Under the pieces are notes generated by a model that saw nothing but the letters and a program-made list of their open reading frames with translations, had not been told where the DNA came from and did no database searches. This document shows positions 3,059 through 60,133 of a stretch of DNA of 64,000 nucleotides, piece by piece; the stretch's first letter is position 1; every line of letters starts with the position of its first letter. The translations under genes were made by a program, and so were the position numbers. Source of the stretch: an uncultured Chloroflexia bacterium (lineage in GTDB: Bacteria > Chloroflexota > Limnocylindria > Limnocylindrales > CSP1-4); assembly GCA_963842755.1 (NCBI GenBank), contig CAWJIC010000033.1, forward strand, positions 66,452-130,451, in the 5' to 3' direction.

Positions 3059-3135
3059 GGGAACGCCCGACCGGCCAGCCCGACCGGCCTGGTTTGACAC
3101 CCCGGAGGGACCGCCCCTACGATGCCTTGGCCCTG

Positions 3136-4533: not shown

Positions 4534-5864
4534 TGAGCACGACGACCGAGATCCTGATCCTGGCGTTCCTCGTTGTCTTGAACGGGGTCTTCGTCGCGGC
4601 GGAGATCAGCCTGGTCACCCTCCGGCGCAGCCGCGTCGAGCAGATGGTCGACGAGGGTCGCCGGGCAGCTCGGCTGGTCCGGCGCCTGACCGACGACCCG
4701 GGTCGCTTCCTGGCCGTCATCCAGATCGCGATCACGTTCATCGGCTTCCTCGCCTCGGCGTTTGCCGCGATCAGCCTGACCCTGGCACTCGAGAAGTCGC
4801 TGAGCGATGCCGGCCTCGATCCGGGGCTGAGCGGCCCGTTCGCCCTGGTCGGCGTGACGATCGTCCTGTCCCTGTTCACGATCGTGTTCGGGGAGCTCGT
4901 CCCGAAGACCCTCGCGCTGGCGTTCCCGGAGCGCTTCGCCCTGGCTCTCGCCCGACCCGTGGACCTCCTCGGTCGGCTGCTCGGCCCGCTCGTCGCGGTG
5001 CTGACGGGGATCACCCGGGCCGTCACCCGACCGTTCGGCGCCGACGTCTCGCGCGCGGCCCAGATCACCGCCGACGAGCTGAAGCTGATCATCGAGCGAG
5101 GTGGCCAGCAGGGGATCCTCGAAGCCGAAGAGGAGCAGATGATCAACGCGGTCATCGAGCTCGGCGAGCGCCGCCTGCACGAGGTCATGGTCCCGCGGAC
5201 CGACATCGTCGCCCTGCCCGCGTCGACCACGTTGGACGAGGCGGTCGATACGATCGTCGAGGAGGGCCACAGCCGGGTCCCGGTCTACGAGGAGTCGATC
5301 GACGAGGTCGTCGGGATCCTGTACGCGAAGGACCTCCTGCCGTTCCTGAAGACATCCTCCGGGCCGCGGCCCACAGTCCGCTCGATCATGCGGGCGCCGC
5401 TGTTCGCCCCGGAGTCGATGTCGATCGACGACCTCCTCCACGACTTCCAGCGCAAGAAGGTCCACGTCGCGATCGTCCTCGACGAGTACGGCGGGACGGC
5501 CGGGCTGGTCTCGATCGAGGACCTCCTGGAGGAGATCGTCGGCGAGATCCAGGACGAGTACGACGTGGAGGAGCCGATGATCGTGCGGCTCTCCGACGAC
5601 GAGGTCCGCATCGACGGCCGCGTCGCCGTCGACGAGCTGGCCGACCTGTTCGACATGACCATCGAGCTGGAGGATGAGGACGAGTACGACACGATCGGCG
5701 GCCTCGTCTTCCACCGCATCGGACGGGTTCCGCTGCCGGGCGACGAGATCGACGTGGACGGGCTCCGGCTCACCGTCGAGACGACCGACGGCCGGCGGGT
5801 GGGCAAGGTCCTCGCCGTCCGCGAGCGCCACGACGCCGGTGGCGACCACGAGGCGGACCGCTAG
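4533..5864 (+). CDS. CNNM/HlyC-CorC family transporter (DUF21 + CBS pair + CorC_HlyC)
   Basis: N-terminal TM region with LNGVFVAAEISL, then RVPV CBS-type segments and a C-terminal transporter-associated domain. The start overlaps the glmU stop (TGATG). Confidence 0.8.
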   Translation: MSTTTEILILAFLVVLNGVFVAAEISLVTLRRSRVEQMVDEGRRAARLVRRLTDDPGRFLAVIQIAITFIGFLASAFAAISLTLALEKSLSDAGLDPGLSGPFALVGVTIVLSLFTIVFGELVPKTLALAFPERFALALARPVDLLGRLLGPLVAVLTGITRAVTRPFGADVSRAAQITADELKLIIERGGQQGILEAEEEQMINAVIELGERRLHEVMVPRTDIVALPASTTLDEAVDTIVEEGHSRVPVYEESIDEVVGILYAKDLLPFLKTSSGPRPTVRSIMRAPLFAPESMSIDDLLHDFQRKKVHVAIVLDEYGGTAGLVSIEDLLEEIVGEIQDEYDVEEPMIVRLSDDEVRIDGRVAVDELADLFDMTIELEDEDEYDTIGGLVFHRIGRVPLPGDEIDVDGLRLTVETTDGRRVGKVLAVRERHDAGGDHEADR

Positions 5865-5921: not shown

Positions 5922-6947
5922 TCAGGCGCTGATCACCGAGATCATGATCCGCTCGAGCTCACCGCGGGCGGCGGTGTCGACCGTGCCCGCCGCGTCGAGC
6001 TCGGCGAGCGCCTCGTCGCGGTAGCGGTGGGCCTGGTCGCGGGTGTAGTCGCGGGCACCCGACCGCTCGAGGATCGCGACCGCTTCGGCAAGCTCGTCGG
6101 GGCTCGGTTCGACGGCGGCGTAGATGGCTCGGAGCCGATCGCGGTCATCGGGGCCGGCGTGCTCGAAGGCGTAGATCACCGGGAGGGTCTTCTTGTGCCG
6201 GGCGAGGTCCGTCGGCTCCTTGCCGGTGGCCTGCTCCTGGCCCCAGATCCCGAGCAGGTCGTCGTTCAGCTGGAAGGCCAGCCCGAGCGCCCAGCCGAAC
6301 GCCCGGTAGCGGGCGATGACCGACTCGTCGTCGGTCGCCAGGAGCGCGCCCGCCTCGATCGAGGCGCTGATCAGCGCGGCCGTCTTGCGGCCGATCATGT
6401 CGAAGTAGAGCTCGACCGACATCGTCTCGTCGTGCTCGGAGGTCCAGATGTCGATGTACTGGCCTTCGCACAGCGCCACGCAGGTGGTGTCGTACAGGCG
6501 CATCAGGCGCAGGACCTTCGCATCGCTGAAGCCGAGCTCGGTCAGGCGGTGGAGGGCGACCCGGCTCAGGCTGAACAGCATGTCCCCGGTGTTGATCGCC
6601 TGGGGGATGCCATGCTTCGCCCAGAGGGTTGCCCGGTGGCGGCGCTCGATGTCACCGTCCTCGATGTCGTCGTGGGCCAGGCTGAAGTTGTGGCCGAGCT
6701 CGACGGCCGCGGCACCGGGCAGGGCCGGCTCGTACTCACCCGTGATCGAGGCGTAGGCGAGCAGGCCGAGGAGCGGTCGCATCCGCTTGCCGGCCGGGGC
6801 GCCGGACCCGTCGAGGCCCAGGTGGTAGCGGACCATCTCGTAGACGCCGTGGGTCGACGGGTCGCGGTCGACCACCAGCCGGAGGATCTCGCGCTCGGTG
6901 GCGGCGATCAGCTCGGTGAGGTCGAACCCGGGGGTCGTGGCGGTCAT
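5922..6947 (-). CDS. Polyprenyl diphosphate synthase (trans-isoprenyl, GGPP-synthase-like)
   Basis: Starts at MTATTPGF. First Asp-rich motif is LAHDDIEDGD and the second is FQLNDDLLG. The upstream part of track ORF 5922..7838 is non-coding or antisense to recO. Confidence 0.85.
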   Translation of the reverse strand: MTATTPGFDLTELIAATEREILRLVVDRDPSTHGVYEMVRYHLGLDGSGAPAGKRMRPLLGLLAYASITGEYEPALPGAAAVELGHNFSLAHDDIEDGDIERRHRATLWAKHGIPQAINTGDMLFSLSRVALHRLTELGFSDAKVLRLMRLYDTTCVALCEGQYIDIWTSEHDETMSVELYFDMIGRKTAALISASIEAGALLATDDESVIARYRAFGWALGLAFQLNDDLLGIWGQEQATGKEPTDLARHKKTLPVIYAFEHAGPDDRDRLRAIYAAVEPSPDELAEAVAILERSGARDYTRDQAHRYRDEALAELDAAGTVDTAARGELERIMISVISA

Positions 6948-8555: not shown

Positions 8556-9969
8556 GTGACCGACCCCCGGACCCCCGAGCCCGATGCCGTCGCGCCCGCC
8601 GTCGCCAACCTCGAGACGATCGTCTCGCTGAGCAAGCGGCGGGGGTTCGTCTTCCCCTCGTCCGAGATCTACGGCGGGATCAACGCCGTGTGGGACTACG
8701 GTCCGCTCGGGGTCGAGCTGAAGAACAACGTGAAGCGGGCCTGGTGGCGGGCCATGGTCCAGGAGCGCGACGACGTCGTCGGGCTCGACGCCGGGATCCT
8801 CATGCACCCGCAGGTGTGGGTCACCTCCGGCCACGTCGGCTCCTTCAGCGACCCGCTGGTGGAGTGCGCGAGCTGCGGCCGGCGGTTCCGCCTGGACGAG
8901 CTGCCCGGCGCGGAGAGCCTGTCCGCGACGGACCTCCTCGACGAGGGCATCGTCGCGCGGCTCGGCCTCAAGTGCCCGGTGGACGGCGGCGCGCTTTCGG
9001 CGCCACGCCGGTTCAACCTCATGTTCCAGACGTACATGGGCCCGGTCCAGGACCAGGCGTCGATCGTCTACCTCCGGCCGGAGACCGCCCAGGGCTCCTA
9101 CGTCAACTTCAAGAACGTCCAGCAGTCGAGCCGGCAAGAAGGTCCCGTTCGGGATCGCCCAGATCGGCAAGAGCTTCCGCAACGAGATCAGTCCCGGCAA
9201 CTTCGTCTTCCGGATGCGCGAGTTCGAGCAGATGGAGATGCAGTACTTCGTGCGCCCCGGCGAGCCGGCCGCGGCCGCCTTCGAGGAGTGGCTGCCCAGG
9301 CGGCTGGCCTGGTACGCGGCCTACGGCGTCGCGCCGGAGCGGCTGCGCCTGCGCGAGCACGCCCCGGACGAGCTGGCCCACTACGCCAAGAAGGCGGTCG
9401 ACGTCGAGTACCGCTTCCCGTTCGGCTGGAAGGAGCTCGAGGGCGTCCACAACCGGGGCGACTTCGACCTGTCGCGCCACGCCGAGGCGTCCGGCGAGAA
9501 CCTCGAGTACTTCGATCCGGCGACGGAGGAGCACTTCATCCCGTGGATCGTCGAGACGGCCGCCGGGGCGGACCGGGCGGCGTTCACGTTCCTCATCGAC
9601 AGCTACCGCGAGGAGGAGGTCAAGGGCGAGAAGCGCGTCTCGCTCGCCCTCCATCCGGAACTCGCGCCGTACAAGGTGGCCGTCCTGCCGCTGCTCAAGA
9701 AGCGGCCGGAGATCGTCGAGCTGTGCCACCGGATCAAGGACGACCTCAAGCGCGACGTGATGGCCGTCTACGACGACACGGCGGCGATCGGCAAGCTCTA
9801 CCGCCGCCAGGACGAGATCGGCACGCCGTGGTGCGTCACCGTCGACGTCGACTCGCTCGAGGACGGCGCGGTCACCATCCGCGATCGCGACTCGATGACC
9901 CAGGAGCGGGTCAGCGTCGACCAGGTCAAGCGGGTCATCCTCGACCGGCTGGCGGCCGTCCGACCGTAA
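8556..9969 (+). pseudogene. glyQS: Glycine--tRNA ligase (class II, homodimeric type), interrupted by a 1-nt indel near 9133-9135 as assembled
   Basis: Frame 0 gives ...[29 protein letters not shown]...FKNVQQSSR. The conserved continuation [39 protein letters not shown]... runs in the +1 frame to the stop at 9969. Confidence 0.85.
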
Positions 9970-10101
9970 GGGCAGCCAGCCCCGGGCGACAAGAACTGGA
10001 CCACCGCATTCGTAGCTGCCCAATATCCGAGTAGGGCCGAGCCTCCGAGGAGAGCAGCGGAGGCGAGCAAGGTTGGCAGTTGGCCGCATGAGGACGACGA
10101 G

Positions 10102-10682
10102 TTACCGGTCGAACATCTCCAGTCCGCACCGTTCCTTGGCTTCTCGGTACTGGGCGTCCGTCCAGGAGCTGTAGTCAACGCCATCGATCGGCATCCAGGG
10201 GCCCGTCGATCTCCAATCGGACGCGAACTTCTCGAATGACGGCGGGTTGACGGGCGAGTTGCCTAGATCCATCAGGCACGCTCGTTCCTGGACCCACCGG
10301 TCATAGATCTCGCGCAACTCTTCATCCGTCTTCTGACGAGCAGGGGGCGCAAGCTTCTGGCACTCATCTAGCTTTGCCGTTCCCTCGGATACCGAATAGT
10401 CGGAGTCCCATGAGTACCACGGCTTAGAACCGGGATACCCTTGGTGGACGTCGGAGATTCGAAAACCGCTGTCCAGCATGCACTGGTCAAAGGCCGACAG
10501 CTCTTCGGTCGGGATCGCGACACCGCCTGCCGCACTCGGCGCGGGTGTTGTGCGGGCCCGGCGTTACAGGCCGCGAGGATGAGCAGTTCGAAGGCAGCGA
10601 CGATTATCGTGATGCCGCGTAACCGCGCACGTCGAGGCACGGATCGGCCTCCTGGGAGGCCTGCCGAGGCGAGTCGCTTCAT
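10102..10682 (-). pseudogene. Cys-rich lipoprotein, paralog 1 of 3 (signal peptide and mature domain in different frames as assembled)
   Basis: MKRLASAG...ITIIVAAFELLILAAC lipobox from ATG 10682. The mature part (APSAAGGVAIPTEELSAFDQCMLDSGF...ERCGLEMFDR) is in another frame. That frame has a TAA at 10564-10566 and the indel lies near 10542-10560. Confidence 0.6.
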
Positions 10683-10883
10683 GTTCCCCTCGTCCTGGGC
10701 AATCCGAGGCGTCCGGCCATGATAGTGGGATGGAAGGCCCATCCGCGACGGAATGACGGTGTCGCCGATGGCGGCGCCACGGTCGAATGCACGCCTGTGG
10801 TTCTGCTGGATCGATTTCCCGCAGGCGTCTTCTTGACGGGACGGTTCGCCGCGGTGCGAGGACATCGACTGGGTCGCGCAAGA

Positions 10884-11426: not shown

Positions 11427-11993
11427 GTGCTGCGTCGAGTTGCGACGATCGTGGTACGGGTCGCGGCCCCTACCCTTGTCGCGTTCGGACTCCTCGTCGT
11501 CGGAGCATGTACCCCCGTGTCCAGCGGGGTCGCGGAGACCGGCTCTCCGAGCCGGTCAAGCGGCATCTCGATCCCGACCGGCCAACTGCCACGGGATATC
11601 CAGTGTGCGGTGGACCACGGCTTTCGACTCGTCGAGGTGAAGCCGCCCCAGTTCGAAGGGGACGCTCCGGGCTACGTGCTGCAGTCCGACCTTCCGGCGG
11701 CGGAGGCGTTCGCGATCTCCCTGGAGTGCGACAAGCTCGCTCCGCCGGGACGCGAGAAGACCGACGAAGAGCTCCGGGTGATCTACGATCGGTGGGTCGG
11801 CGAGCGCGGCTGCCTGATCGAGTTGGGCTATCAGCCGGACAAGCCGCCATCGTTCGAGACGTTCGTGTCCGACTGGCGGAGTCCCCACGGTCCCTGGGAC
11901 CCGCTGTTCGGGGTGGATACGGGCTCATGGACTGACGCCGAGTATGCAGAGGCGAAGCGTCGCTGCACCCTCGAGTTCTTCGACCGAGACTGA
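11427..11993 (+). CDS. Cys-rich lipoprotein, paralog 3 of 3
   Basis: GTG start, then MLRRVATIVVRVAAPTLVAFGLLVVGAC lipobox. It has the same four conserved Cys and the LEFFDR C-terminus. Confidence 0.65.
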   Translation: MLRRVATIVVRVAAPTLVAFGLLVVGACTPVSSGVAETGSPSRSSGISIPTGQLPRDIQCAVDHGFRLVEVKPPQFEGDAPGYVLQSDLPAAEAFAISLECDKLAPPGREKTDEELRVIYDRWVGERGCLIELGYQPDKPPSFETFVSDWRSPHGPWDPLFGVDTGSWTDAEYAEAKRRCTLEFFDRD

Positions 11994-47699: not shown

Positions 47700-48968
47700 C
47701 TAGTCCTTCGCGGAGGGGTCCGTGATGCGGCCGAGGAAGAGGATCGCGCCGGTCGGGACGTCGCGCAGGGCGAACAGGAACGGGCGATCCACCCGCAGCG
47801 TCAGGGGCTCCTCGGGAGCGCCGGTCGTGCGCATGACGACCGCCGTGGCGGCCGCCGCCTCCGTGCCCTTCTCGTCCACGTCGATGTTCGCCTGGTGGAT
47901 GACCGCCGAGATGACGAGCTGCTCCTCGGTCGTGATCCCGGAGAAGTCCGCCCGATCCGGATCGAAGGCGAGCGGCATGCCCATCGCGGCGAGCGTCGTC
48001 GCGAGGTCCGTCTTGCTCTCGATCCCGAACTTCGGCAGGGCGAGCTGGACCGGGCGGGGCTGGAGCGCTCCGGTCACCCCGGCCAGGAGGTCGGGGGTGA
48101 GGCTCGACTGGAACGCAGCCATGCTGTCCGGAACGATGATCGTCAGCGCGAGCGAGCCGCCGACGTAGGGCAGCTCCACGGCGCGCCAGCCGGTTCCCTC
48201 GGCATAGGGGAACGACTCGCTGAGCGACATCATCAGGACGTCCACGGTGGAGCCGTCCGGGCGGCTGAAGGCGCCGGGCTTCGTCGCGTCCGGGCTGAAC
48301 GGCGTCAGCCAGGGGGCCTTGAGGTAGATCGCGTTGACGAGCGTGAGGCGCGTGTCGGTCGTGATGATGCCCGGGACCAGCAGCTCCGGGATCCGCTGCA
48401 CGGTCTGCTCGTCGACCCAGCCGTTGATCTGCCGGCGGGCGGCCTCGGGATCCGCCCGGTAGTCGACCAGCCGGAGCCCCGCCCCGAAGCGCGCGGCGAG
48501 CGCGTCGAGGTAGGCCGGCACGAGGGTCATCCCGCGCTGGGCGAACGGCGCGTTCGCGATCCGCAGGGCCACCGGATATGGCTTGCCCGCGGCATCGGGG
48601 AACGTCCCGCTCCGGCCGGCGAGGGCCGCGTCGAGCGCGTTGAGCCAGCCGGCATGCTCATCGGATGCCACCGCGCCGAGGACCCCGTCCATCTCCGCCG
48701 CGGTCTCGCCGCGGGCGCCGGCTCGGGCCATCGCCAGGGCGAGCGCCACGCTCGCGGGCGAGACGACGACGTTCCCGTCGCCGGCCCCGCTCCGCCGGAG
48801 GAGCTCCAGCCCGAACCCGTTGATTGCCGTGGCCGCCGACATCGCGTCGACGGGATCGGCCGAGGCGCGCGGCGCGTTGGCGCGGGCGAGGCCGACGTCC
48901 CCGGGTCCCGTGCATGCACTCGACACGGCGAGGACCAACGCGAGCAGGGCGGCGATCTGGCGCTTCAT
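47700..48968 (-). CDS. Serpin (serine protease inhibitor) with lipoprotein signal peptide
   Basis: MKRQIAALLALVLAVSSAC lipobox. Serpin body (NVVVSPASVALALAMA, LTLVNAIYLKAPW), hinge EKGTEAAAATAVV and PFLFALRD. Confidence 0.85.
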   Translation of the reverse strand: MKRQIAALLALVLAVSSACTGPGDVGLARANAPRASADPVDAMSAATAINGFGLELLRRSGAGDGNVVVSPASVALALAMARAGARGETAAEMDGVLGAVASDEHAGWLNALDAALAGRSGTFPDAAGKPYPVALRIANAPFAQRGMTLVPAYLDALAARFGAGLRLVDYRADPEAARRQINGWVDEQTVQRIPELLVPGIITTDTRLTLVNAIYLKAPWLTPFSPDATKPGAFSRPDGSTVDVLMMSLSESFPYAEGTGWRAVELPYVGGSLALTIIVPDSMAAFQSSLTPDLLAGVTGALQPRPVQLALPKFGIESKTDLATTLAAMGMPLAFDPDRADFSGITTEEQLVISAVIHQANIDVDEKGTEAAAATAVVMRTTGAPEEPLTLRVDRPFLFALRDVPTGAILFLGRITDPSAKD

Positions 48969-49205
48969 GACCCTCAGACGCCGGCGGGGGTGCCGTGGTT
49001 GCCGGGGCGGGACCGCGAGACTCAGGACGAGGCCGTCCTGGGCGGCTCCGCCTGGAGCGTTCGGGCGATCGCGGTGGCCCACTCCCTGATCTCGTCCTGG
49101 TGGACGACCCTCGGAGGTCCACAGGAGTGACGGGGCTGCGTTCGTGACCTCCGCCCCTGTCCGGCGGGGCGTTCGCCCCTCATGCTCCAGTCTTGGAGGT
49201 GCCCC

Positions 49206-49415
49206 ATGGCCGCGAAGGCAGGAGACCGCATCGTCGTCGAGTCGGAGAAGGTGGGCAAGGCAGCCCGGGAGGGCGAGATCCTGGAGGTGATCCAGTCGGC
49301 GACTGGCACTCGCTATCGGGTCCGCTGGGACGACGGGCATGAAAGCACGTTCCTGCCCTATGGCGGGAGTGCCCGAATCATCTCCCAGCCAGAACGCCAT
49401 CCGGCTCGCAAGTGA
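49206..49415 (+). CDS. DUF1918-like small protein
   Basis: GGAGG RBS. MAAKAGDRIVVES...GEILEV...YRVRWDDGHESTFLP matches the DUF1918 pattern. Confidence 0.6.
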   Translation: MAAKAGDRIVVESEKVGKAAREGEILEVIQSATGTRYRVRWDDGHESTFLPYGGSARIISQPERHPARK

Positions 49416-50672: not shown

Positions 50673-50715
50673 TGGTGGAGATGAAGGGACTCGAACCCCT
50701 GGCCTCCGGCGATGC
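50673..50715 (-). other. tRNA 3'-end fragment (T-arm, acceptor 3' strand, discriminator, CCA) without a 5' half; probable att-site remnant
   Basis: The minus strand reads ...aggcc AGGGG TTCGAGT CCCTT CATCTCC A CCA. No complementary GGAGATG 5' acceptor strand, D-arm or foldable anticodon arm lies upstream. Confidence 0.6.
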
Positions 50716-50870
50716 GAATCCTGCCCCACGGCCAGGTGTTGGCGGCCGGTGTAGTGGGCGTCCATGGCGATGCGCTGGGCCTCATCCGACAGCTCCCCAC
50801 GGAGGGGGTGTACCCTGCCTTCGTGGGCCCGAGCGGAACCGATGGGTGTGATGTGCCTGTGGAGAGTTCG

Positions 50871-51263
50871 ATGCAGCCGGTGAGCGTACAGATCATCACC
50901 TACGCGCCGACGGCCTTCCGCCACTGCCAGCACTGCGAGGTGGCGTTCGAGGGCATGGGCATCGGCCAGCGCGTGCAACGCGAGGCCGTCTCCAGCTCGC
51001 TGCCGGACAACCTGGCCCGTGAATACCAGGAGGTGTCCGACTGGGTCCATCGCCTGCTCGAACGCCACCCCGGCCGGCTCGCGGTCTCCGTCATCGACGC
51101 CGCTTCGATCGAGGGGGTCTGGAAGTCGCTGCGCCACCGCGTGCGCCGCTACCCGGCAACGATCGTGGCTGGGCGCGAGACGGCGATCGGTACCGATTTT
51201 GGGGCCGTCGATCGCGTCATCGACCGCCACGTGTCGTCCTCGGGAGGGAGAGGAGGGGCCTAA
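50871..51263 (+). CDS. Thioredoxin-fold-like CxxC protein (ArsD/YuzD-like topology), function unknown
   Basis: GGAG RBS. VQIITYAPTAFRHCQHCEV (beta strand then CxxC) and a later YPATIVAGRETAIG segment resemble the ArsD/YuzD-type thioredoxin fold. This is a similarity judgement only. Confidence 0.5.
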   Translation: MQPVSVQIITYAPTAFRHCQHCEVAFEGMGIGQRVQREAVSSSLPDNLAREYQEVSDWVHRLLERHPGRLAVSVIDAASIEGVWKSLRHRVRRYPATIVAGRETAIGTDFGAVDRVIDRHVSSSGGRGGA

Positions 51264-51370
51264 AGGGAAGATCCATATGGGGACGCCAGCGCGCTAGACG
51301 GCGCCGCAGGCTCACCATCCGGGTGACTGCCCCCGCCATTTGTGCGCGCTCCTTTGAACGGGAGGGTTGC

Positions 51371-53266
51371 ATGAGTTCGCTATGGGTCGTGGTCATCGGC
51401 GCGGTGGTCATCTACCTCGCCTACAACTATTACGCCCGCCGCATCGATAGGGTCGTCATTCAGTCGGACCCGAAGCGGGCGACGCCGGCCACCATGTACA
51501 TGGACGGGGCCGACTTCATGCCGACCAGCCGCTTCGTCCTGTACGGTTACCACTTCAAGTCGATCGCCGCCGCCGGCCCCATCGTCGGCGTCATCACCGC
51601 CGCCAACCTGTGGGGCTGGCTGCCATCGATCCTCTGGCTGATGATCGGCGTCACCTTCATCGGCTGGGCGAGCGACTACAGCGCGATCATGATGAGCGTG
51701 CGCAACGATGGGAACTCGCTCGCGGCGATCTCCCACCGGCTCATCAGCCCACGCACGCGGACGATCCTGTTCGTGTTCATCTTCTTCTACCTGCTGCTGC
51801 TCGGCGGTGCCTTCGTCGGGATCATGGCGGCCGTTCTGGACGCCAGGCCCGACGTCCCCTTCGGGATCCTGGTGCTGGCGGCGATGGGAATGCTCGGCGG
51901 CTACCTCATCTACCGCCGAAAGGTTGACCTGATCCGGGTCACCCTCCTCATCGTTGTCGCCACGCTGCTGGCCATGGTGCTCGGTCCGCTGGGCGTGACC
52001 TTCCAGAAGGGCCAGCCGCCGACCTGGGAGACCGGGCCGGTGAGCGGTGTCGTGCGTGGCATCAATGCCACGCTGAACGGCGACGGAAATCCCATCTACA
52101 CCGTGGTCGACCCGACAAACGCCGATCCGCGCGTTCCGCCGGTCAACCCCGAGACCGGAAAGCGGCCCTCTACCGCGGTCTTCAACGCCGCCACGGGCGA
52201 GATCAACGTCCTGCCCAGCTTCCTGTTCTGGTGCCTCTTTCTGCTGGCCTTCAGCTACCTGGGCACTAACATGGCGATCTGGCGCTTCGCGCAGCCGGTG
52301 AACTACATCGGCTTCTGGATCACCGCTCTGACCATTGGCCTCTCGGCGGTGGGCGCCATCCTGGCACCGTTCTTCCGACCGGAGGTGGCCGCCTTCAAGC
52401 TTCAGGCGTTCACGAGCTTCGCGCCGGCCGCGGCGGGGGCCATCCAGACCCTGTGGCCCATGCTCTTCGTCACCATCGCCTGCGGGGCGATCTCCGGCTG
52501 GCACGCGCTCATCGGATCGGTTGGCACCGCTCGGCAGCTTCAGTACGAGACCGATGCGCTGCCGGTCGGCGGCGGGGGTATGTTCAGCGAGAACACGCTG
52601 GGCCTCCTGTCGCTGACGGCGGTGGCGATCTCCGGCGGCGCGGGAGCCGGGGCGTTCGCCGCGGGGGTTGGCAACCTGCTGAACGTGGCAACCTTTGGGC
52701 TCGTGCCGCTCGCCTTCGGGACGGCGCTCGGCTTCGGCGCCTTCGTCGTGATCGTGCTTACCGTGGTGCAGCTCGTCTTCCGCGTCATGCGCGTGACGCT
52801 GGGCGAGTGGCTGGGCGACACGTGGATCGGCTTCAAGAACCAGCACGTCGCCATGATCATCTCATCGATCCTGGTGCTGGCCCTGGTGCTGTCCGGCACG
52901 TGGGTCTATCTGTGGCAGCTCTTCGGCGCCTCGAACCAGCTGCTGGCAGCGCTCAGCTTGCTGCTGGTGACGCTGTGGCTGGCCTCGACGCGGCGGAATC
53001 CGGCCTATGCCGGGATCCCCATGCTGTTCATGTACGTGACCACCGTGGCGGCGAGCCTGGTGACGGCGTACAACCTGTACGTCACGATCGTGATCCGCGA
53101 GGGCTCGGCGCTGATCTCCATTCTCGGCGCTTGGGCCATGATCGCGGTCTCGCTGCTGCTAGTGGGTGCGGCGCTGCTCATCGCCTTCGACGCGTGGAAG
53201 GCCTGGGGCCGCTACCGGGCCTTGCCAGCCGAGCCGGTTCCCGCGCCGGCGGCGCCGGGCGCTTAA
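51371..53266 (+). CDS. CstA (carbon starvation protein A) family transporter, divergent, with a large inserted loop
   Basis: VLYGYHFKSIAAAGPIVG, SVRNDGNSL, LFVTIACGAISGWHALIGS and LWQLFGASNQLLAA match CstA conserved blocks. Extra loop QKGQPPTWETGPV...NAATGE. Confidence 0.75.
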   Translation: MSSLWVVVIGAVVIYLAYNYYARRIDRVVIQSDPKRATPATMYMDGADFMPTSRFVLYGYHFKSIAAAGPIVGVITAANLWGWLPSILWLMIGVTFIGWASDYSAIMMSVRNDGNSLAAISHRLISPRTRTILFVFIFFYLLLLGGAFVGIMAAVLDARPDVPFGILVLAAMGMLGGYLIYRRKVDLIRVTLLIVVATLLAMVLGPLGVTFQKGQPPTWETGPVSGVVRGINATLNGDGNPIYTVVDPTNADPRVPPVNPETGKRPSTAVFNAATGEINVLPSFLFWCLFLLAFSYLGTNMAIWRFAQPVNYIGFWITALTIGLSAVGAILAPFFRPEVAAFKLQAFTSFAPAAAGAIQTLWPMLFVTIACGAISGWHALIGSVGTARQLQYETDALPVGGGGMFSENTLGLLSLTAVAISGGAGAGAFAAGVGNLLNVATFGLVPLAFGTALGFGAFVVIVLTVVQLVFRVMRVTLGEWLGDTWIGFKNQHVAMIISSILVLALVLSGTWVYLWQLFGASNQLLAALSLLLVTLWLASTRRNPAYAGIPMLFMYVTTVAASLVTAYNLYVTIVIREGSALISILGAWAMIAVSLLLVGAALLIAFDAWKAWGRYRALPAEPVPAPAAPGA

Positions 53267-53322: not shown

Positions 53323-53991
53323 CTACTTGCTTGGCGCGACCTGGCGCGCAACCTCGCGAACGGCTCCCATCAGCCGCAGCGAGCTGATGCCATCCGCCGG
53401 CGGCAGGAGGTGGAGCTCCAGGTGCGGCACGGTCGGGCTGACCGACATCCGCCAGACGCCTCCGCTGACGCTGGCCAGCTGCTCCCACCAGCCGCGCAGC
53501 TCGTCGAGCTTCACGGTTGGGTCGTGCCGCGCCTCGAGCGCCGTCCCGTCCCACGCCCCGCTCCAGCTCGGGCCCGCGCGTTCGCCCGCCCAACGATGCC
53601 TGACATCGCCCATTGTCCAGCCCCGTGGATCAGCGAGATCAGCGCTGAAGCGCGGCGCCCGCACGAGGCGCAGGCGCAGGATCAGGAAGTCGCGGCGGCC
53701 GCGACGGTGAGCGAGCGCCCACAGCGCGCCGAGGTCACGCGGCTCGAGCACGACCAGCAGCGCGGCCTCACGGAACGGTGCCTCGGGCTGCGAGATGCGC
53801 AGCTCGACGACCGAGCTTCCCAGCCAGCGCAGGGTCGTCCGCTGGCCGAGCAGCGGGAGCCCATCCTGGAGCCAGCGCAGCAGCTCGTTGCCGCGCCGGA
53901 TGTTGCGCTGGGTGCCGAAGGCGAACCACAGCATGACGACCGCGAGTAGGGCGATCGCGAGCGAGGCGCCAAAGGCCGAGAGATCGGGCAT
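53323..53991 (-). CDS. Hypothetical N-terminally membrane-anchored protein
   Basis: MPDLSAFGASLAIALLAVVMLWFAFG TM anchor, then a soluble Arg/Trp-rich domain. Divergent from the downstream operon. Confidence 0.5.
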   Translation of the reverse strand: MPDLSAFGASLAIALLAVVMLWFAFGTQRNIRRGNELLRWLQDGLPLLGQRTTLRWLGSSVVELRISQPEAPFREAALLVVLEPRDLGALWALAHRRGRRDFLILRLRLVRAPRFSADLADPRGWTMGDVRHRWAGERAGPSWSGAWDGTALEARHDPTVKLDELRGWWEQLASVSGGVWRMSVSPTVPHLELHLLPPADGISSLRLMGAVREVARQVAPSK

Positions 53992-54091
53992 GAGTAGTGC
54001 AGGCGACTGTACGGAGCATGGCGGGCATCGGTCAAGCGGCTCTGGCGGCCGGGTGCTAGATTGGACCGATCCACATTGGTCGGGAGGGCCC

Positions 54092-54385
54092 GTGACCAAC
54101 GAGCGCGACGCGGCAGATGGAGGGCTGCGAACTGCGCTGCGCGAATTCCTCTACGGCATGACCGGGCACGAGTTCGCGCGCCAGTCGGTCGCCATGCGCG
54201 CCAACCTGGAGACGATCTTCATGGTGACCTGCGTCGGCGACATGATCGGTCTGCCGATCATTCCGCCCTACTATTCACTCCGCCTGCTGCCGTTCGTGAT
54301 CCCGCAGGTCGCCACCTGGAAGCGCCGCGTCCTGCGCGAACGCCACTTCAGCGAGGAGCACGACTATGAGTTGCATGGCGTCTAA
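54092..54385 (+). CDS. Small protein, paralog A (PPYYSLRLLP-core family), unknown function
   Basis: GTG after GGGAGGG. It shares about 60 alignable residues with the next gene, including GDMIGLPIIPPYYSLRLLPFVIPQVATWKRRVLRE. Confidence 0.6.
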   Translation: MTNERDAADGGLRTALREFLYGMTGHEFARQSVAMRANLETIFMVTCVGDMIGLPIIPPYYSLRLLPFVIPQVATWKRRVLRERHFSEEHDYELHGV

Positions 54386-54399
54386 GCCGGGAGGCAACG

Positions 54400-54690
54400 A
54401 TGGCTGACCAAGAGCAACCCGAGGAGCGCCGGGGCGGGCTGCGTGGGCTGGTCGGGAAGCTCCGGGAGGTCACCTACGGGATGGCCGCCCACGACATGAC
54501 CCGCTCCGCCCTCCGCACCCGGGCGAGCATGGAGCACCTCTTCATCCTGATCACCATGGGCGACCTGGTCGGGGTTCCGATCCTGCCACCCTACTACTCC
54601 CTGCGCCTGCTCCCCTACGTCGTGCCCCAGATCTCGACCTGGAAGCGAAGCATGCTGCGCGAGAAGGATGTGACCGATGCGATGTTCTAG
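54400..54690 (+). CDS. Small protein, paralog B (PPYYSLRLLP-core family), unknown function
   Basis: ATG after GGGAGG. GDLVGVPILPPYYSLRLLPYVVPQISTWKRSMLRE. It ends 2 nt before the ATPase gene. Confidence 0.65.
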   Translation: MADQEQPEERRGGLRGLVGKLREVTYGMAAHDMTRSALRTRASMEHLFILITMGDLVGVPILPPYYSLRLLPYVVPQISTWKRSMLREKDVTDAMF

Positions 54691-54692
54691 CC

Positions 54693-55712
54693 ATGACCGT
54701 GCAGGCTGAGGCGGGCAAGGGCCGCACGACGCCGCTGGCCGACTTCTTCAACGCCCACCCTGATCGCCACTACATCATGTTCGGTGGCAAGGGCGGGCTC
54801 GGCAAGACGACCTTCTCGGCGGCGACCGGCTACTGGCTGGCCAAGCAGGGCAAGCGCGTCCTGGTTTTCAGCGTCGACCCCCAGGCCAGCCTGTCCGACA
54901 TCTTCCAGACCGATATCTTCGGCAAGGGCCCGGTCAAGGTCATGGACAACTTGTGGGCCCAGGAGATCGACGCCGACCGCCACATCCGCGACTACCAGGA
55001 TGAGGTGCGCGCCAAGATCCTCGACATGTACGGGCTCGAGAAGGTGCCCGAGGAGATCGAGGACTACATCGCCGCCGCCAGCGCCGAGCCGGCGATGGAG
55101 GAGTCGGCGATCTTCGACGCCGTGGTCGACATCCTGTCCGAGGGCGACTACGACTACTACATCTACGACCTCGTGCCGCTGGGCCACGCCCTCTACTACC
55201 TGTCGATGGCCAAGATCTACGACGAATGGATCGGCAAGATCACCCACCTGCGTGAGGAGATGCGCGAGTACGAGGAGGTGGCGGCACGGATGCGGCGCCA
55301 GAAGGAGGTGGCCGCGGACGAGATCCTGGGCGAGCTTCAGTACATCCGGCAGCGCATCAACGCCGCCTCCCGCATCCTGACCGATCGAGATCGGACCGCC
55401 TTCTTCTTTGTGGTCGTGCCCGAGCAGATGATCCTCATCGACACCCGCAAGGCGGCCGAGATGTTCGCCCGCTTCGACGTGCCGATCGCGGGCTACATCG
55501 TCAACCGCGTCCTGCCCGAGTCACTCGACAGCGAGGGGGTGCCGGCCTACCTGCGCAGCCGGATGGAGATGCAGCGCGGCCAGTTGGCCGAGATCGAGCG
55601 GGAGCTGGGACGCGACGTGCGCGCTCAAGTCCCCGAGCTGGAGCGCGACGTCACCGGGCTGGAGATGATCGAGCGCATCGCCACGCTGATGTACGGAGAG
55701 GTGCCCCGATGA
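54693..55712 (+). CDS. ArsA/Get3-family P-loop ATPase, half-size, subunit 1
   Basis: Deviant Walker A FGGKGGLGKTT, SVDPQASL, and switch II-like YDLVPLGHALYYL (compare DTAPTGHT). No cysteines. Confidence 0.8.
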   Translation: MTVQAEAGKGRTTPLADFFNAHPDRHYIMFGGKGGLGKTTFSAATGYWLAKQGKRVLVFSVDPQASLSDIFQTDIFGKGPVKVMDNLWAQEIDADRHIRDYQDEVRAKILDMYGLEKVPEEIEDYIAAASAEPAMEESAIFDAVVDILSEGDYDYYIYDLVPLGHALYYLSMAKIYDEWIGKITHLREEMREYEEVAARMRRQKEVAADEILGELQYIRQRINAASRILTDRDRTAFFFVVVPEQMILIDTRKAAEMFARFDVPIAGYIVNRVLPESLDSEGVPAYLRSRMEMQRGQLAEIERELGRDVRAQVPELERDVTGLEMIERIATLMYGEVPR

Positions 55713-56716
55713 GCCTCGCGACCGATCCGACCCGCCTGGTCAGCACCTCGATGGCCGACTTCATGACCGCCCACGCGGACCTGCGCTACGTCTTCTTCGG
55801 CGGCAAGGGCGGGGTCGGCAAGACGGTCATGGCCGGCATGACGGCGGTCGAGCTGGCGCGCCAGGGGCGTCGTGTGCTGCTCGCCTCCACCAATCCGGTC
55901 CACTCGCTCTCCGGCCTGCTGGGCCAGGACGTCTACGGCAAGCACACCCCGGTGAGCGGCGTCGAGAACCTGTGGGCGCTGGAGATCGACACCAGCGAGG
56001 CGATCGAACGCTCCAAGCGGGAAATCCGCGAGAAGATCCAGTGGTTCCTCAAGTTCGCCGAGATCAGCACCAAGGCCGACGAGTTTGTCGAGGCGGCCAC
56101 GACCAATCCGGCGTTCGAGGAATCGGCGATGTTCGAGAACATGGTCGACCTCATGTTCCACGACGAGTACGAGGTCTACGTCTTCGACACGGCGCCCACG
56201 GCGAACGCGCGGCGCCTGCTGGGCATGAGCAAGGTTTACGGCCTGTGGGTCAGCAAGATGGTGAAGTCGCGCGAGGAGGCGCAAACCCTGCGCGAGGCCC
56301 TCTCCTTCACGAAGAAGAAGGAGGCGGACCCGCTGATGACCTACCTCGTCGACTTCCGCGGGCGGATCGAGCATGCCCGCGAGCTGCTCACCGACTCGGC
56401 CAAGACCGCCTTCTTCTTCGTGACCCTGCCCGAGGCGCTGCCCATCGCGGTGGTCCGCCGCTTCATCAACTGGTTCACCGACTTCGGGATCCCAGTCGGC
56501 GGCGTGATCGTCAACATGGTGATCGACAGCACGCAGACGAAGGGCACCGGCGAGGGCGGCGAGTTCGTCCGCAACCGAATCGCCATGCAGCAGGGCTACC
56601 TGCGCGAGATCGGCGAGACCTTCGACGGCGACGTGCGCGCGGTGGTGCCTCTGCTCGACTCCGACATCCGCGGCGTGCCGGCGCTCCAGGAGGCTGGGCG
56701 ACGCCTGTTCACCTAG
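55709..56716 (+). CDS. ArsA/Get3-family P-loop ATPase, half-size, subunit 2
   Basis: The ATG overlaps the upstream stop (ATGA). FGGKGGVGKTV, STNPVHSL, and FDTAPTANARRLL (the His of DTAPTGH is replaced). No cysteines. Confidence 0.8.
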   Translation: MSLATDPTRLVSTSMADFMTAHADLRYVFFGGKGGVGKTVMAGMTAVELARQGRRVLLASTNPVHSLSGLLGQDVYGKHTPVSGVENLWALEIDTSEAIERSKREIREKIQWFLKFAEISTKADEFVEAATTNPAFEESAMFENMVDLMFHDEYEVYVFDTAPTANARRLLGMSKVYGLWVSKMVKSREEAQTLREALSFTKKKEADPLMTYLVDFRGRIEHARELLTDSAKTAFFFVTLPEALPIAVVRRFINWFTDFGIPVGGVIVNMVIDSTQTKGTGEGGEFVRNRIAMQQGYLREIGETFDGDVRAVVPLLDSDIRGVPALQEAGRRLFT

Positions 56717-56844: not shown

Positions 56845-57480
56845 TCAGACGAGCCGACGATCGGCGGCCCAGCGGCTGAGCTCGTAGCGGTTCGATAGCT
56901 GGAGCTTGCGCAGGACGGCCGAGACATGGGTCTCGACGGTCTTGATCGCGATCCCGAGCTCGTGGGCGACTTCCTTGTAGGCGTAGCCCCGAGCGATATA
57001 CCGGAGCACTTCGCGTTCCCGGGTCGACAGCAGGTCGAGCTCCGGATCGGCCGGCGCTGGAGCCTCGCGACCGAAGGCGTCGAGCACGAAGCCGGCCAGG
57101 CGCGGCGAGAAGACGGCGTCGCCGTCGTGCACCCGGCGTACGGCAAGATCGAGCTCGGCCGGTGAGATGGACTTCGTCACGTAGCCTCGGGCGCCGGCCC
57201 GGATGACGTCGATGACGTCCTGGGCGGCATCAGAGACCGAGAGCGCCAGGAACCGTACGTTCGGCTGCTTCGCGCACACGGCCTCGATGACGGCCCGGCC
57301 ACCACCGCCGGGCATGTGGACGTCAATCAGGACGACGTCCGGCGCGCTGGCAAGGATCGCGGGAATGGCCTCCTCGACGGTGGCCGCATCACCCACGATC
57401 TCGACGCCGCCCTTCAGCTCCGAACGGACCCCCGACCGGAACAGCTCGTGGTCGTCGACGATGAACACGCGCACGCTCAC
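56845..57480 (-). CDS. Response regulator, NarL/LuxR family
   Basis: VFIVDDH...DVVLIDVHMPG receiver domain and an LSTREREVLRYIARGYAYKEVA HTH. Confidence 0.9.
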   Translation of the reverse strand: MSVRVFIVDDHELFRSGVRSELKGGVEIVGDAATVEEAIPAILASAPDVVLIDVHMPGGGGRAVIEAVCAKQPNVRFLALSVSDAAQDVIDVIRAGARGYVTKSISPAELDLAVRRVHDGDAVFSPRLAGFVLDAFGREAPAPADPELDLLSTREREVLRYIARGYAYKEVAHELGIAIKTVETHVSAVLRKLQLSNRYELSRWAADRRLV

Positions 57481-58754
57481 TGGCCGAGCCTCGGCAGTCG
57501 GATGACCACTTCGGTACCGCGCCCCGGTTCGCTCCGGACCTCCGCGGTTCCACCATGCCGCTCCATTCGGCGAACGATCAAATCCGCGATCCCGCGCCTG
57601 TCCTCGGGGACCGCGCCCGGATCGAAGCCGGCACCCTCGTCACGGACGAACGCGCTGACCTGCGTGTCCTCGACCTCGAGGTAGACAGAGACTTCGTCGA
57701 CCCCAGAGTGTTTCGCCGCGTTCAGGGTGGCCTCGCTGCACGCCCCCATGAGCGCGCGGAGTTCCTCGTCGAGCTCGAGGTCGCCGACCACGATCGCCTC
57801 GACCTTGACGTGATGGCTGCGTTCCACCCGACCGGCCATCGAGTCGAGCGCATCGCGCAGCGTGACGCCCCGGACGCTCGGAGCCCGACCGAAGAGCCAG
57901 GCGCGAAGCTCCCGTTCCTGGGTTCGAGCGAGGCTTGCCATCTCACGGGGCTCGTGGGAGCGTTGGATAAGCGCCAGGGTTTGAAGGACAGAGTCGTGGA
58001 GGTGCGCCGCCATCTCCGCCCGTGCCTCGGAACGAATCCGGCTGTTGCGCTCCTCCATCAGCTCGCCGGCCAGTCGCCAGACCCATGGCCCAGCGAGGAG
58101 GGCCAGGCCGCCGACGGTGACGATGACCGCCAGGACGACGTTGGCGGCCGCCGAGAGGGAGGTGGTCGCGGCCAGGAAGACCGCCATGCCACCCACGATC
58201 AGGGCGCTCCCGAAGAGGATGCGCGGCAGGGAGGCGCGGCCGCTGATCATGGCCTCGATCGGGCTCCTGAAGCTGGCCGGATCCCAGCGGCCGCGGCCCT
58301 CGTCCGTGCCGCGCGCCCACAGGATGGCGAAGCCGATCGCCGCTAACGAGGCCGGCCAGCCCAGCTCCCAACCGAACCACAGCCCGGTGACGAGGAAGAG
58401 CGTGGCCACACCGACCAGGATCAGGCTCATCCCAACGAGCTGCTGTGGCGACGGTCGAGGCAGCGGTCGCCGCGTCGCCGCATCCGTCTCGTCGGCCGCA
58501 TCCGCCACCTCGACCGGGGCCAGGAGCCAGAGCAGCAGGTACACGATGACCCCGAAGCCAGCGGCAAAGGCCAGGATGACGAACGCAAGCCGGACAACGA
58601 GCGGCTCGATGCGCAGATGCCGGGCGACGCCGGCGGCCACGCCGGCAACGACTCGATCCGTTCGGCCGCGACGCAGGCTCGGGCGAGCGGTCGCGATCGC
58701 GGTCACGGTCGTCGGCTGCGGCTCGATCTCTGCCATGGACCGTGATGTTCCCAT
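57477..58754 (-). CDS. PspC-domain sensor histidine kinase (LiaS-like)
   Basis: N-terminal PspC domain (RTDRVVAGVAAGVARHLRIEPLVVRLAFVILAF), TM segments, HLHDSVLQTLALIQ H-box and an HATPase. The start is ATG 58754 or 58736. Confidence 0.85.
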   Translation of the reverse strand: MGTSRSMAEIEPQPTTVTAIATARPSLRRGRTDRVVAGVAAGVARHLRIEPLVVRLAFVILAFAAGFGVIVYLLLWLLAPVEVADAADETDAATRRPLPRPSPQQLVGMSLILVGVATLFLVTGLWFGWELGWPASLAAIGFAILWARGTDEGRGRWDPASFRSPIEAMISGRASLPRILFGSALIVGGMAVFLAATTSLSAAANVVLAVIVTVGGLALLAGPWVWRLAGELMEERNSRIRSEARAEMAAHLHDSVLQTLALIQRSHEPREMASLARTQERELRAWLFGRAPSVRGVTLRDALDSMAGRVERSHHVKVEAIVVGDLELDEELRALMGACSEATLNAAKHSGVDEVSVYLEVEDTQVSAFVRDEGAGFDPGAVPEDRRGIADLIVRRMERHGGTAEVRSEPGRGTEVVIRLPRLGQ

Positions 58755-58861
58755 AGGGACGGCGCGGGGCGCGATGGGTGAAGACCCTGAGCGCGACCTT
58801 CGAAGGGTCAGGGTTGGATCGGGGACTCCACCGATGGCGCCGGGATGAGCGTTCCACGACC

Positions 58862-60133
58862 ATGGCTGCCATGACGAGCGAACAACCGGGGACTGCACTC
58901 CACCCTGACGGCACCCCCAGCGAAGCGCGCCGTCTCCGACGCCGGACGACCGATCGCGTGATCGGCGGCGTCGCGGGTGGGGTCGCCGACTACCTCAACA
59001 TCGATCCGCTGCTGCTTCGAGTGGCGTTCGCGGGGTTGATGATCTTCGGTGGAGCCGGACTCCTGCTTTACGTCGTCGCGTGGCTCCTGATCCCCGCATG
59101 CGGGCGCGACGATTCGATCGTCCAGGAGTGGTTGGCCCGTCTCAGGGCTCGGTTCGGGAGCACCGGAACCGCAATCCTCGTCCTGATCGCGGTCATCCTT
59201 GGCGGGCTCTGGCTGGCCGGTCAGGCTGAACCGTGCATGGTGTCCGTCGACGATCCCTATTCCGGGCAGTGCGCGAGCAACGGCTTTGGCTGGCTGTTCG
59301 ACTACGAGCCCATTCGTCTGCGCGACGCCGCATTGATCGCGATCGCGATCATCGGTGTCGGGATCGTTGTGCTCCGCTGGCGGGAAGGGTCCGCACGTCC
59401 GGCGACCGCGATGGGCGGTGTGCCGACCCAGGCGACCGCCCCAGGTGCCGCGATCGAGACGGCCGCGGAGGCCATGCTCCCGACCGCGGGTGCGATCAAG
59501 GCCCGCCCAGGCGAATCGCTCCCGCGTCCGCGATCGCCACTCGGCTGGTACGTGCTCGCTGCTGTGCTCGTCGCGGTCGGCCTCCTGGCCGTCGTCGGCA
59601 ACGCGCCTGGACTTGACGTCGCGCTCGGCCAGTATTTCGGAGCGGGTCTCGCGGTGCTCGGCATCGGACTGGTCGTGGGTGCCTGGTGGGGCCGAGCAAG
59701 GCTGCCGATCCTGCTGGGTCTGTTCGTTCTGCCAGTTGCGGCAACGGCGGCGTTCATCAACGTGCCGCTCGATGGCGGGTTCGCCGATCAGGCGTTCCAG
59801 CCGAAGACGGTCGGGGAGCTGCGCACCGACTACCGTCTGGCGGGCGGCGAGATCCGCCTCGACCTGACGGACCTGCCAGCCGGCGGCGGCCCCATCGTGC
59901 TCAACGCCAGCGTGGGCGTGGGGCTCCTGGTCGTGGTCGTTCCCGACGACGCGAGGCTCGTGCTTGATGCCCGGGTCAGCGGAGGCCGCCTTTCCCTGTT
60001 CGGCAACCGCCAGATCGGCACCGGCCTCGCCGACCGCGTCGAGCGGCTGACAGGACTGGGTCCGCAGCTGGTCCTGAACCTGGAGGCCGGGATCGGCGAG
60101 GTGCTCGTTCTGACCGCATCGGACGGAGGCTGA
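58862..60133 (+). CDS. PspC-domain membrane protein with C-terminal LiaF-like beta domain
   Basis: TTDRVIGGVAGGVADYLNIDPLLLRVAFAGLMIF PspC domain and multiple TM segments. Divergent from the PspC kinase. Confidence 0.8.
   Translation: MAAMTSEQPGTALHPDGTPSEARRLRRRTTDRVIGGVAGGVADYLNIDPLLLRVAFAGLMIFGGAGLLLYVVAWLLIPACGRDDSIVQEWLARLRARFGSTGTAILVLIAVILGGLWLAGQAEPCMVSVDDPYSGQCASNGFGWLFDYEPIRLRDAALIAIAIIGVGIVVLRWREGSARPATAMGGVPTQATAPGAAIETAAEAMLPTAGAIKARPGESLPRPRSPLGWYVLAAVLVAVGLLAVVGNAPGLDVALGQYFGAGLAVLGIGLVVGAWWGRARLPILLGLFVLPVAATAAFINVPLDGGFADQAFQPKTVGELRTDYRLAGGEIRLDLTDLPAGGGPIVLNASVGVGLLVVVVPDDARLVLDARVSGGRLSLFGNRQIGTGLADRVERLTGLGPQLVLNLEAGIGEVLVLTASDGG

Follow-up and report, generated by a model that had tools for sequence, protein, structure and literature searches.

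The four genes at positions 54092–56716 of a 64,000-nucleotide stretch of an uncultured Chloroflexia genome (contig CAWJIC010000033.1; the whole stretch is hereafter called the window) encode two small proteins, S1 and S2, and two single-domain Get3/ArsA-fold ATPases, A1 and A2. These genes are real and strongly conserved, and they are part of a cluster that extends upstream of 54092 and includes the divergently oriented gene of a membrane protein, R258, as well as cstA. The cluster is of the CstA-CstX-ArsA-homologue kind predicted in 2010 (Castillo & Saier, PMC2963123) and not an undescribed one. We incline, by a little more than even chances, to the interpretation that S1-S2-A1-A2 are the ATPase pair and the membrane tethers of a CstA-centered complex, in which they would drive or gate transport. 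What the data themselves show is the association of the genes, the families they belong to, the asymmetry of the ATPase motifs, and the predicted fold of R258; all interactions within such a complex, like the direction of energy coupling, are what we infer from the comparisons described below.

Genes of the cluster and their conservation

The cluster comprises the following features, given in the order of their coordinates in the window:

50871–51263, plus strand: C3, a protein of about 130 aa with an HCxHCE motif; the gene ends 60 nt upstream of cstA
51323–53266, plus strand: cstA, a multipass membrane transporter of 647 aa (Pfam PF02554 CstA, E = 6e-102)
53323–53991, minus strand: R258, a single-pass membrane protein of 222 aa, convergent with cstA and divergent from S1
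53992–54091, no strand: the divergent intergenic region between R258 and S1, 100 nt
54092–54385, plus strand: S1, 97 aa, with a GTG start and a GGGAGGG Shine-Dalgarno sequence 5–11 nt upstream; DUF7990 ("CstX"-type) protein
54400–54690, plus strand: S2, 96 aa; DUF7990 ("CstX"-type) small subunit
54693–55712, plus strand: A1, 339 aa; single-domain Get3/ArsA-fold ATPase
55709–56716, plus strand: A2, 335 aa; single-domain Get3/ArsA-fold ATPase

S1 and S2 are separated by 14 nt (which contain GGGAGG) and S2 and A1 by 2 nt, and A1 and A2 share an ATGA overlap. The coordinates and spacing of the four genes given in a preliminary description of this DNA, made from the sequence alone, were thus reproduced. 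Its view of the small proteins as paralogs also holds, as S1 and S2 are 48% identical (E = 2e-33); the identity between A1 and A2 is 37% (E = 1e-65). In the window, S1-S2-A1-A2 constitute a transcription unit of their own, and the reverse-strand gene R258 separates this unit from cstA, which ends 826 bp upstream of S1. The promoters of both R258 and S1 presumably reside in the intergenic region between them. A scan for promoters and terminators gave matches at chance level, among them one sigma-70-like match (54035–54006, minus strand) not above expectation, and an Rfam search of the whole window, this intergenic region included, returned 0 matches.

The conservation of the cluster was followed in 80 loci that were obtained by a genome scan with S2 and whose flanks were then searched for neighboring genes. 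They originate from at least five phyla (Chloroflexota, Actinomycetota, Acidobacteriota, Pseudomonadota, and Myxococcota), and the nearest relatives of the window are Limnocylindria/Chloroflexia metagenome-assembled genomes with 97% identity. A survey of other genomes for the small-small-ATPase-ATPase order had been suggested in the preliminary description; S1-S2-A1 retain order and strand in 75 of the 80 loci, and, where the contig continues, A1 is nearly always followed by A2; this arrangement is far beyond chance. Identities to the window range from 71 to 97% for S2 and from 64 to 96% for A1 and A2, with 64–80% for the ATPases in the other phyla sampled. The gene cstA is adjacent to the S-S-A-A unit in 67 loci, R258 is found on the same strand and at the same position between cstA and S1 in 71, and C3 occupies the same place upstream of cstA in 33. 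Distant DUF7990 members likewise occur as DUF7990-DUF7990-ArsA-ArsA beside cstA, even where cstA lies on the other side or on the other strand. The frequent adjacency of cstA and its retention by distant members in a reshuffled order support a linkage to CstA, which the preliminary description missed when it treated the four genes as a stand-alone system, because in this genome a reverse-strand gene separates cstA from S1. The product of cstA reaches only 153 bits against the model of the E. coli-type CstA (PRK15015; cut-off 1188) and therefore belongs to a distinct CstA subfamily.

In two loci the small-protein genes are split. The order is S2 (6001–6285), CstA (8920–10800), and S1 (11547–11786) in L037, and S1 (2938–3192, minus strand), CstA (3322–5124, minus strand), and S2 (6001–6273) in L040. 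In both cases S1 is located beside cstA and S2 beside A1-A2, which supports a placement of S1 on the CstA side and of S2 on the ATPase side of the putative complex. Two apparent fusion proteins, P0001 (S2::S1) and P0169 (S2::A1), were set aside as evidence, since they look like products of deletion or misassembly between repeats on short contigs.

A SEED-based study of ArsA homologues had found 26 genomes that encode a single-domain homologue of ~330 aa together with cstA, and 24 of these also encode a ~90-aa protein with a single transmembrane segment (TMS) that was named CstX (PMC2963123). CstX was never seen without CstA, and CstA, CstX, and the ArsA homologue had co-evolved; a pair of adjacent ArsA homologues occurs in Symbiobacterium thermophilum and, together with two CstX paralogues, in Pyrobaculum arsenaticum, and five archaea have an extra single-TMS protein of ~210 aa, CstY (PMC2963123). 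The authors proposed that the ATPase energizes CstA via CstX (PMC2963123). S1 and S2, matched by the published description, fit every stated feature of CstX. The earlier suggestion of an undescribed system is only partly upheld, since its kind was described in 2010 and its small proteins are DUF7990 proteins. We found no later publication testing the coupling of CstA, CstX, and the ArsA homologue, the name CstX being used in this sense only in PMC2963123, and no literature on CstA together with an anion-transporting ATPase.

The ATPases and their small partner proteins

The Pfam domain ArsA_ATPase covers the full length of both A1 (E = 4e-71) and A2 (E = 9e-66), with one domain in each, and their scores against TIGR00345 (GET3/ArsA/TRC40; 233.5 and 219.5 bits, cut-off 135) make them members of this superfamily. 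Three narrower assignments were considered and rejected. Canonical ArsA does not fit two single-domain, cysteine-free proteins that score 103 (A1) and 113 bits (A2) against TIGR04291 (cut-off 650) and are encoded without ars genes: none of these, arsR included, was found in the operon or within ~10 kb. Canonical Get3 is likewise rejected, because with no cysteine in A1 or A2 there is no CxxC zinc clasp; where M. jannaschii Get3 has C..FC, A1 has SEGVPAY at the aligned position. The BagA/BagB models, finally, give about one tenth of their cut-offs for A1 and A2 (NF053622, 50 and 49 bits, cut-off 400; NF053621, 41 and 38 bits, cut-off 521). The preliminary description is borne out on all these points: it had seen two single-domain ATPases with a deviant Walker A motif and without cysteines, hence with neither the metalloid site nor the CxxC clasp, had taken them for neither canonical ArsA nor canonical Get3, and had noted the absence of ars genes nearby. 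In profile searches against the PDB, the best-matching solved structures for both ATPases are Get3 proteins of archaea, namely from M. jannaschii (3ug6, with E = 1e-61 for A1) and from M. thermautotrophicus (3zq6), the E-values ranging from 1e-61 to 1e-48; E. coli ArsA (1f48) is matched with E ~1e-30 and BagAB (6bs3) with E ~1e-7.

The deviant Walker A motif, GGKGG[LV]GKT, is present in both A1 and A2 and invariant among their orthologues. Differences between the two proteins emerge in the switch regions, which were compared across 68–71 orthologues. In A1, switch I (SVDPQASL) and switch II (YDLVPLGH) are invariant in 69 sequences and provide a complete catalytic set. The corresponding A2 motifs, STNPVHSL and FDTAPTAN, are fixed among orthologues as well. 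Its switch-I Asn (N62), present in 70 of 72 sequences, aligns with the Asp of S(T/V)DP in A1 (D62) and in the Get3 of M. jannaschii; the other two sequences have A1-type motifs at every position and look like mis-assigned A1 copies. The switch-I Asp (D57 of yeast Get3) is a catalytic residue, and the Asn mutant binds ATP without hydrolysing it. Because Asn replaces this residue, A2 is probably the hydrolysis-impaired partner of a pair with one active and one degenerate site. A1 and A2 would thus form an obligate asymmetric nucleotide-sandwich heterodimer, in which A1 is catalytically complete and A2 may bind ATP but hydrolyse it poorly. An obligate heterodimer had already been proposed from the difference between DLVPLGH (A1) and DTAPTAN (A2) in switch II; this difference was confirmed, and the proposal is well supported by motif differences between A1 and A2 that are invariant over the orthologues compared.

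The small proteins could be placed in no family in the preliminary description. S2 has 4881 homologues in a large protein collection, however, and all among the matches listed carry PF25952, which is named DUF7990 in the gene tables; the domain is found on homologues 74–97% identical to S2 and on distant relatives alike. Via these homologues S1 and S2 can be assigned with high confidence to this named, though not well-characterized, family, and neither gave a match, even at E = 10, in a Pfam copy without PF25952. A search of 1.84 billion representatives with a profile of the S2 family retrieved 426 clusters at 50% identity, and the family is thus of modest size but widespread. A DUF7990 profile found no related solved structure in the PDB, a tblastn search of plasmids with S2 gave 0 matches, and no literature was found under "PF25952" or "cory-CC-star". 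The latter is the name of NF041419, against which the two proteins score 29.9 and 31.3 bits (E = 4e-7 and 1.5e-7), below the 80-bit cut-off and indicative of remote homology only. Members of NF041419 presumably end in Cys-Cys, as the family name implies; S1, which contains a single cysteine, ends in LHGV and S2 in DAMF. The sub-threshold match also hints that corynebacterial and mycobacterial ATPase pairs (for example BagAB) might have a remotely related small partner.

Across phyla, the mean pairwise identity is 55% for S1, 75% for S2, and 75 and 70% for the ATPases, and S2 is therefore conserved like the ATPases. Residues invariant in S1, S2, and their homologues include, in S2 numbering, G54, D55, G58, P60, P63, P64, Y65, Y66, S67, R69, P72, P76, Q77, W81, K82, R83, L86, R87, and E88. 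Each protein has one hydrophobic region, at approximately residues 44–77, which is broken by a Pro-rich turn and flanked by the basic sequences RTRAS... and WKRRMLREK. Following the positive-inside rule, basic residues on both sides and the Pro-rich turn suggest that each of S1 and S2 enters the membrane as a monotopic hairpin whose termini both lie on the cytoplasmic side, and not as a tail anchor. According to this topology each would consist of an N-terminal helix, a Pro-rich hydrophobic hairpin with basic flanks, and a C-terminal helix with a subunit-specific tail. The low-confidence AlphaFold2 model of S2 (from a 14-sequence alignment) is all-helical, with helices at residues 15–39, 44–56, 64–69, and 71–95, and S2 probably needs its partners to fold. 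The tails are conserved but differ between the paralogs: S1 has an acidic, often His-rich C-terminus (54350–54385) that ends in LHG[VIL] (...EEHDYELHGV in the window, consensus ...DDHEFHLHGV, also DHEHHLHGL), whereas that of S2 reads KD[VL][ST]DAMF. This difference suggests that S1 and S2 dock to two different partners, and metal binding or subunit-specific docking are possible functions of the tails. Their role as tail-anchored clients of the ATPases, one of the options named in the preliminary description, is unlikely given the basic flanks on both sides, the invariant polar and Pro core, and the conserved subunit-specific C-terminal tails. S1 and S2 are best interpreted as adaptors of the ATPase pair, another of the options named there.

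R258, C3, and the function of the complex

R258 has 1326 homologues that were called at ~222 aa, none of them with a Pfam domain, which identifies it as a real gene. Its AlphaFold2 model is confident (mean predicted local distance difference test, pLDDT, 88.5; predicted template modeling score 0.83) and displays an N-terminal transmembrane helix that runs into a long helix and is followed by an alpha/beta domain. A profile search of the PDB with R258 gave only noise (TolQ, E = 0.11). With the model as query, however, Foldseek retrieved from the PDB as top matches 7tm3_4 (E = 1.6e-5) and 9i78_4 (E = 5.9e-5), with query-normalized TM-scores of 0.58–0.62 and a probability of 1.00, and as next matches mycobacterial TtfA (6t84, E = 1.5e-3) and 6w6l_7. 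Chain 4 of 9i78 is CCDC47, as its length of 371 fits the modelled residues 76–447, described as "TMD and globular domain" (PMC12572126), and from the shared composition of the complexes the 7tm3 and 6w6l chains should be CCDC47 as well. Both CCDC47 and TtfA share with R258 an N-terminal single transmembrane helix followed by a globular alpha/beta domain, but the likeness is to the predicted R258 model and the sequence identity is just 10–13%. We found no paper linking CCDC47 with TtfA or describing a CCDC47-like fold in bacteria. TtfA is an accessory factor of the multipass transporter MmpL3, and R258 might be an accessory subunit of CstA in the same manner, its alpha/beta domain presumably being cytoplasmic. 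Compared by description (222 aa, one N-terminal transmembrane helix), R258 may be the bacterial counterpart of CstY.

C3 is probably co-transcribed with cstA. Its start was set to M54 of the open reading frame 50712–51263 from an orthologue alignment, and in a 16-sequence alignment the residues A12, P13, T14, H18, C19, H21, C22, and E23 are invariant. A PDB profile search yielded weak matches to thioredoxins only (1fo5, E = 0.018), and the pattern His-Cys-x-His-Cys is more reminiscent of metal binding than of a redox CxxC. In other lineages C3 forms the N-terminal part of a fusion with the first DUF7990 protein, in the order CstA-[C3::DUF7990]-DUF7990-ArsA-ArsA (P0232, P0190, P0139), and on four contigs the fusion gene directly follows cstA (L088, 7001–7675; L089, 2411–3085; L090, 2381–3055; L091, 7001–7648). 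Because of this fusion we consider C3 a part of the module and the N-terminus of S1 cytoplasmic. C3 might then act as sensor or chaperone for a substrate, a metal, or a redox signal, in the position that ArsD has in the arsenite pump. A more remote possibility is that the cluster represents an ATP-driven metal or metalloid transporter built on the CstA carrier, of which C3, with its HCxHC motif, and the frequently His-rich tail of S1 would be the marks.

In the mechanism we propose, the four proteins would form the part of the complex that faces the cytoplasm: S1, next to CstA, and S2, next to the ATPases, would anchor the A1/A2 dimer both at the membrane and at the transporter, and closing and opening of the dimer by ATP would be transmitted through S1 and S2 to CstA, so that transport is driven or gated, similar to ArsA making ArsB a pump. 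Several points weigh against it. Characterized CstA/BtsT proteins are proton symporters. In 13 of the 80 loci cstA is missing from the examined flank, although several of these contigs end early, and in the window cstA and S1-S2-A1-A2 belong to different transcription units. The sole fusion of CstA to DUF7990, P0177, agrees with the C-terminal end of CstA but could be traced to no contig, and it is weak evidence. The Kyte-Doolittle peak (19-residue window) of the hydrophobic region in S1 and S2 is borderline at 1.6–1.7, and with the low confidence of the S2 model (pLDDT 57) their hairpin topology derives from sequence arguments alone. Moreover, among solved structures A1 and A2 are closest to archaeal Get3 and not to pump ATPases, and R258 resembles a membrane-protein biogenesis factor, which fits a role of the cluster in biogenesis too.

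In this main alternative, which we regard as rather unlikely, the cluster would assemble the CstA complex instead of being its motor: the Get3-like A1/A2 would capture hydrophobic segments (the S1/S2 hairpins or CstA transmembrane segments) in an ATP-dependent groove and hand them to the membrane, with the CCDC47-like R258 as intramembrane or assembly chaperone. CCDC47 is a subunit of the PAT complex/multipass translocon of the endoplasmic reticulum (ER) (PMC12572126). Besides this resemblance and the proximity of the ATPases to archaeal Get3, a biogenesis function would agree with the full-length helical subdomain of A1 and A2, including the insert region, whose mean hydropathy is approximately that of M. 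jannaschii Get3, and with the hydrophobic segment in the C-terminal half of S1 and S2. The insert, however, contains only 3 Met compared to 9 in M. jannaschii Get3, the CxxC clasp is absent, and S1 and S2 are conserved far beyond any known Get3 client, with invariant G, D, P, PPYY, S, R, Q, and WKR. Insertion as tail anchors is further contradicted by the basic residues on both sides of the core and by a charged, conserved C-terminal tail of ~20 residues. R258 is absent from distant clusters that keep CstA, DUF7990, and the ATPases, and its fold is shared by TtfA, a transporter accessory factor. A more elaborate variant, a prokaryotic assembly machine in which a Get3-like heterodimer, DUF7990 hairpin receptors, and a CCDC47-like factor surround CstA, appears more doubtful still. 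If true, it would be a bacterial and archaeal relative of two ER pathways (GET and PAT/multipass translocon) and would provide the first defined partners of prokaryotic Get3 homologues; any biogenesis function would tie prokaryotic systems to the ER insertion machinery. Least likely, and in our opinion improbable, is a stand-alone, BagAB-like stress-protection ATPase independent of CstA, with the cstA neighborhood reflecting co-regulation, for example in starvation: the separate transcription unit behind a reverse-strand gene, the precedent of BagAB as a heterodimeric Get3-like pair without transporter partner (weakly matched through 6bs3, NF053621, and NF053622), and the weak match of S1/S2 to the actinobacterial small-protein family NF041419 (E ~1e-7) would be consistent with it, but cstA is adjacent in most loci and in distant reshuffled members, S1 stays with cstA in split clusters, CstX never occurs without CstA and co-evolved with it (PMC2963123), and the BagA/BagB scores of 50 and 41 bits are far below 400 and 521.

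The neighborhood of the four genes in the window comprises genes for LytR, DeaD, a serpin, and CstA, for a LuxR-type regulator and a kinase with a PspC domain, and for a PspC protein and an ABC transporter. The serpin (47700–49400, minus strand) is a 566-aa open reading frame with a full-length Pfam Serpin domain (E = 2e-96) and an N-terminal extension of ~190 residues; serpins are relatively uncommon in bacteria. Downstream of A2 are a LuxR-type response regulator (56845–57480, minus strand), a PspC-domain histidine kinase (57477–58898, minus strand), and, divergently oriented, a PspC-domain membrane protein (58778–60133, plus strand). Together (56845–60133) they look like a cell-envelope stress module, which is convergent with A2 and not conserved beside the cluster in other loci.

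Comparison with known systems

The clusters described by Castillo and Saier combine single-domain ArsA homologues of ~330 aa with CstA and a ~90-aa one-TMS partner in the absence of arsR and other ars genes, and all these features are found here. Beyond that study, which covered 26 genomes without motif or structure analysis, are the Asp-to-Asn exchange in A2, the CCDC47/TtfA-like fold of R258, and the HCxHC protein with its fusions. The fixed set of partners (CstA, two DUF7990 proteins, an asymmetric ATPase pair, R258, and C3) renders the coupling hypothesis of 2010 directly testable. It also bears on two wider questions, namely the role of bacterial and archaeal Get3/ArsA homologues outside arsenic resistance and the purpose that accessory proteins serve for the widespread "carbon starvation" transporters of the CstA family.

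Among systems with similar ATPases, BagAB of M. tuberculosis (Rv3679/Rv3680, 6bs3) resembles A1/A2 as a heterodimeric pair encoded by adjacent Get3-like ATPase genes in a bacterium, but the two are very distant (E ~1e-7, model scores ~1/10 of the cut-offs), and to our knowledge BagAB has no CstA partner. Get3/TRC40 (3ug6, 3zq6) is the best sequence match and has in common with A1 and A2 the single-domain structure, the deviant Walker A motif, and the full-length helical subdomain. It is, however, a homodimer with a CxxC zinc clasp that serves diverse tail-anchored clients through the Get1/2 receptors, whereas A1 and A2 would form a cysteine-free heterodimer of diverged paralogs with one degenerate catalytic site and fixed, highly conserved partners.

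The arsenite pump offers a functional parallel to the complex that we favor, and the model of ArsA, ArsB, and ArsD is established knowledge. In both systems a secondary carrier would be joined by an ATPase that has the same fold and whose two nucleotide sites are non-equivalent, and C3, as a small cysteine-bearing partner, may deliver a substrate as ArsD does. ArsA, in contrast, is one polypeptide of ~583 aa with two halves and metalloid-binding cysteines, in place of which the window encodes two separate, cysteine-free proteins; the carrier is CstA instead of ArsB, additional small subunits are present, and the ars genes including arsR are absent. If the ATPase pair indeed drives or gates CstA, secondary carriers that have been made ATP-dependent would be known from nature in two cases, ArsAB being the first.

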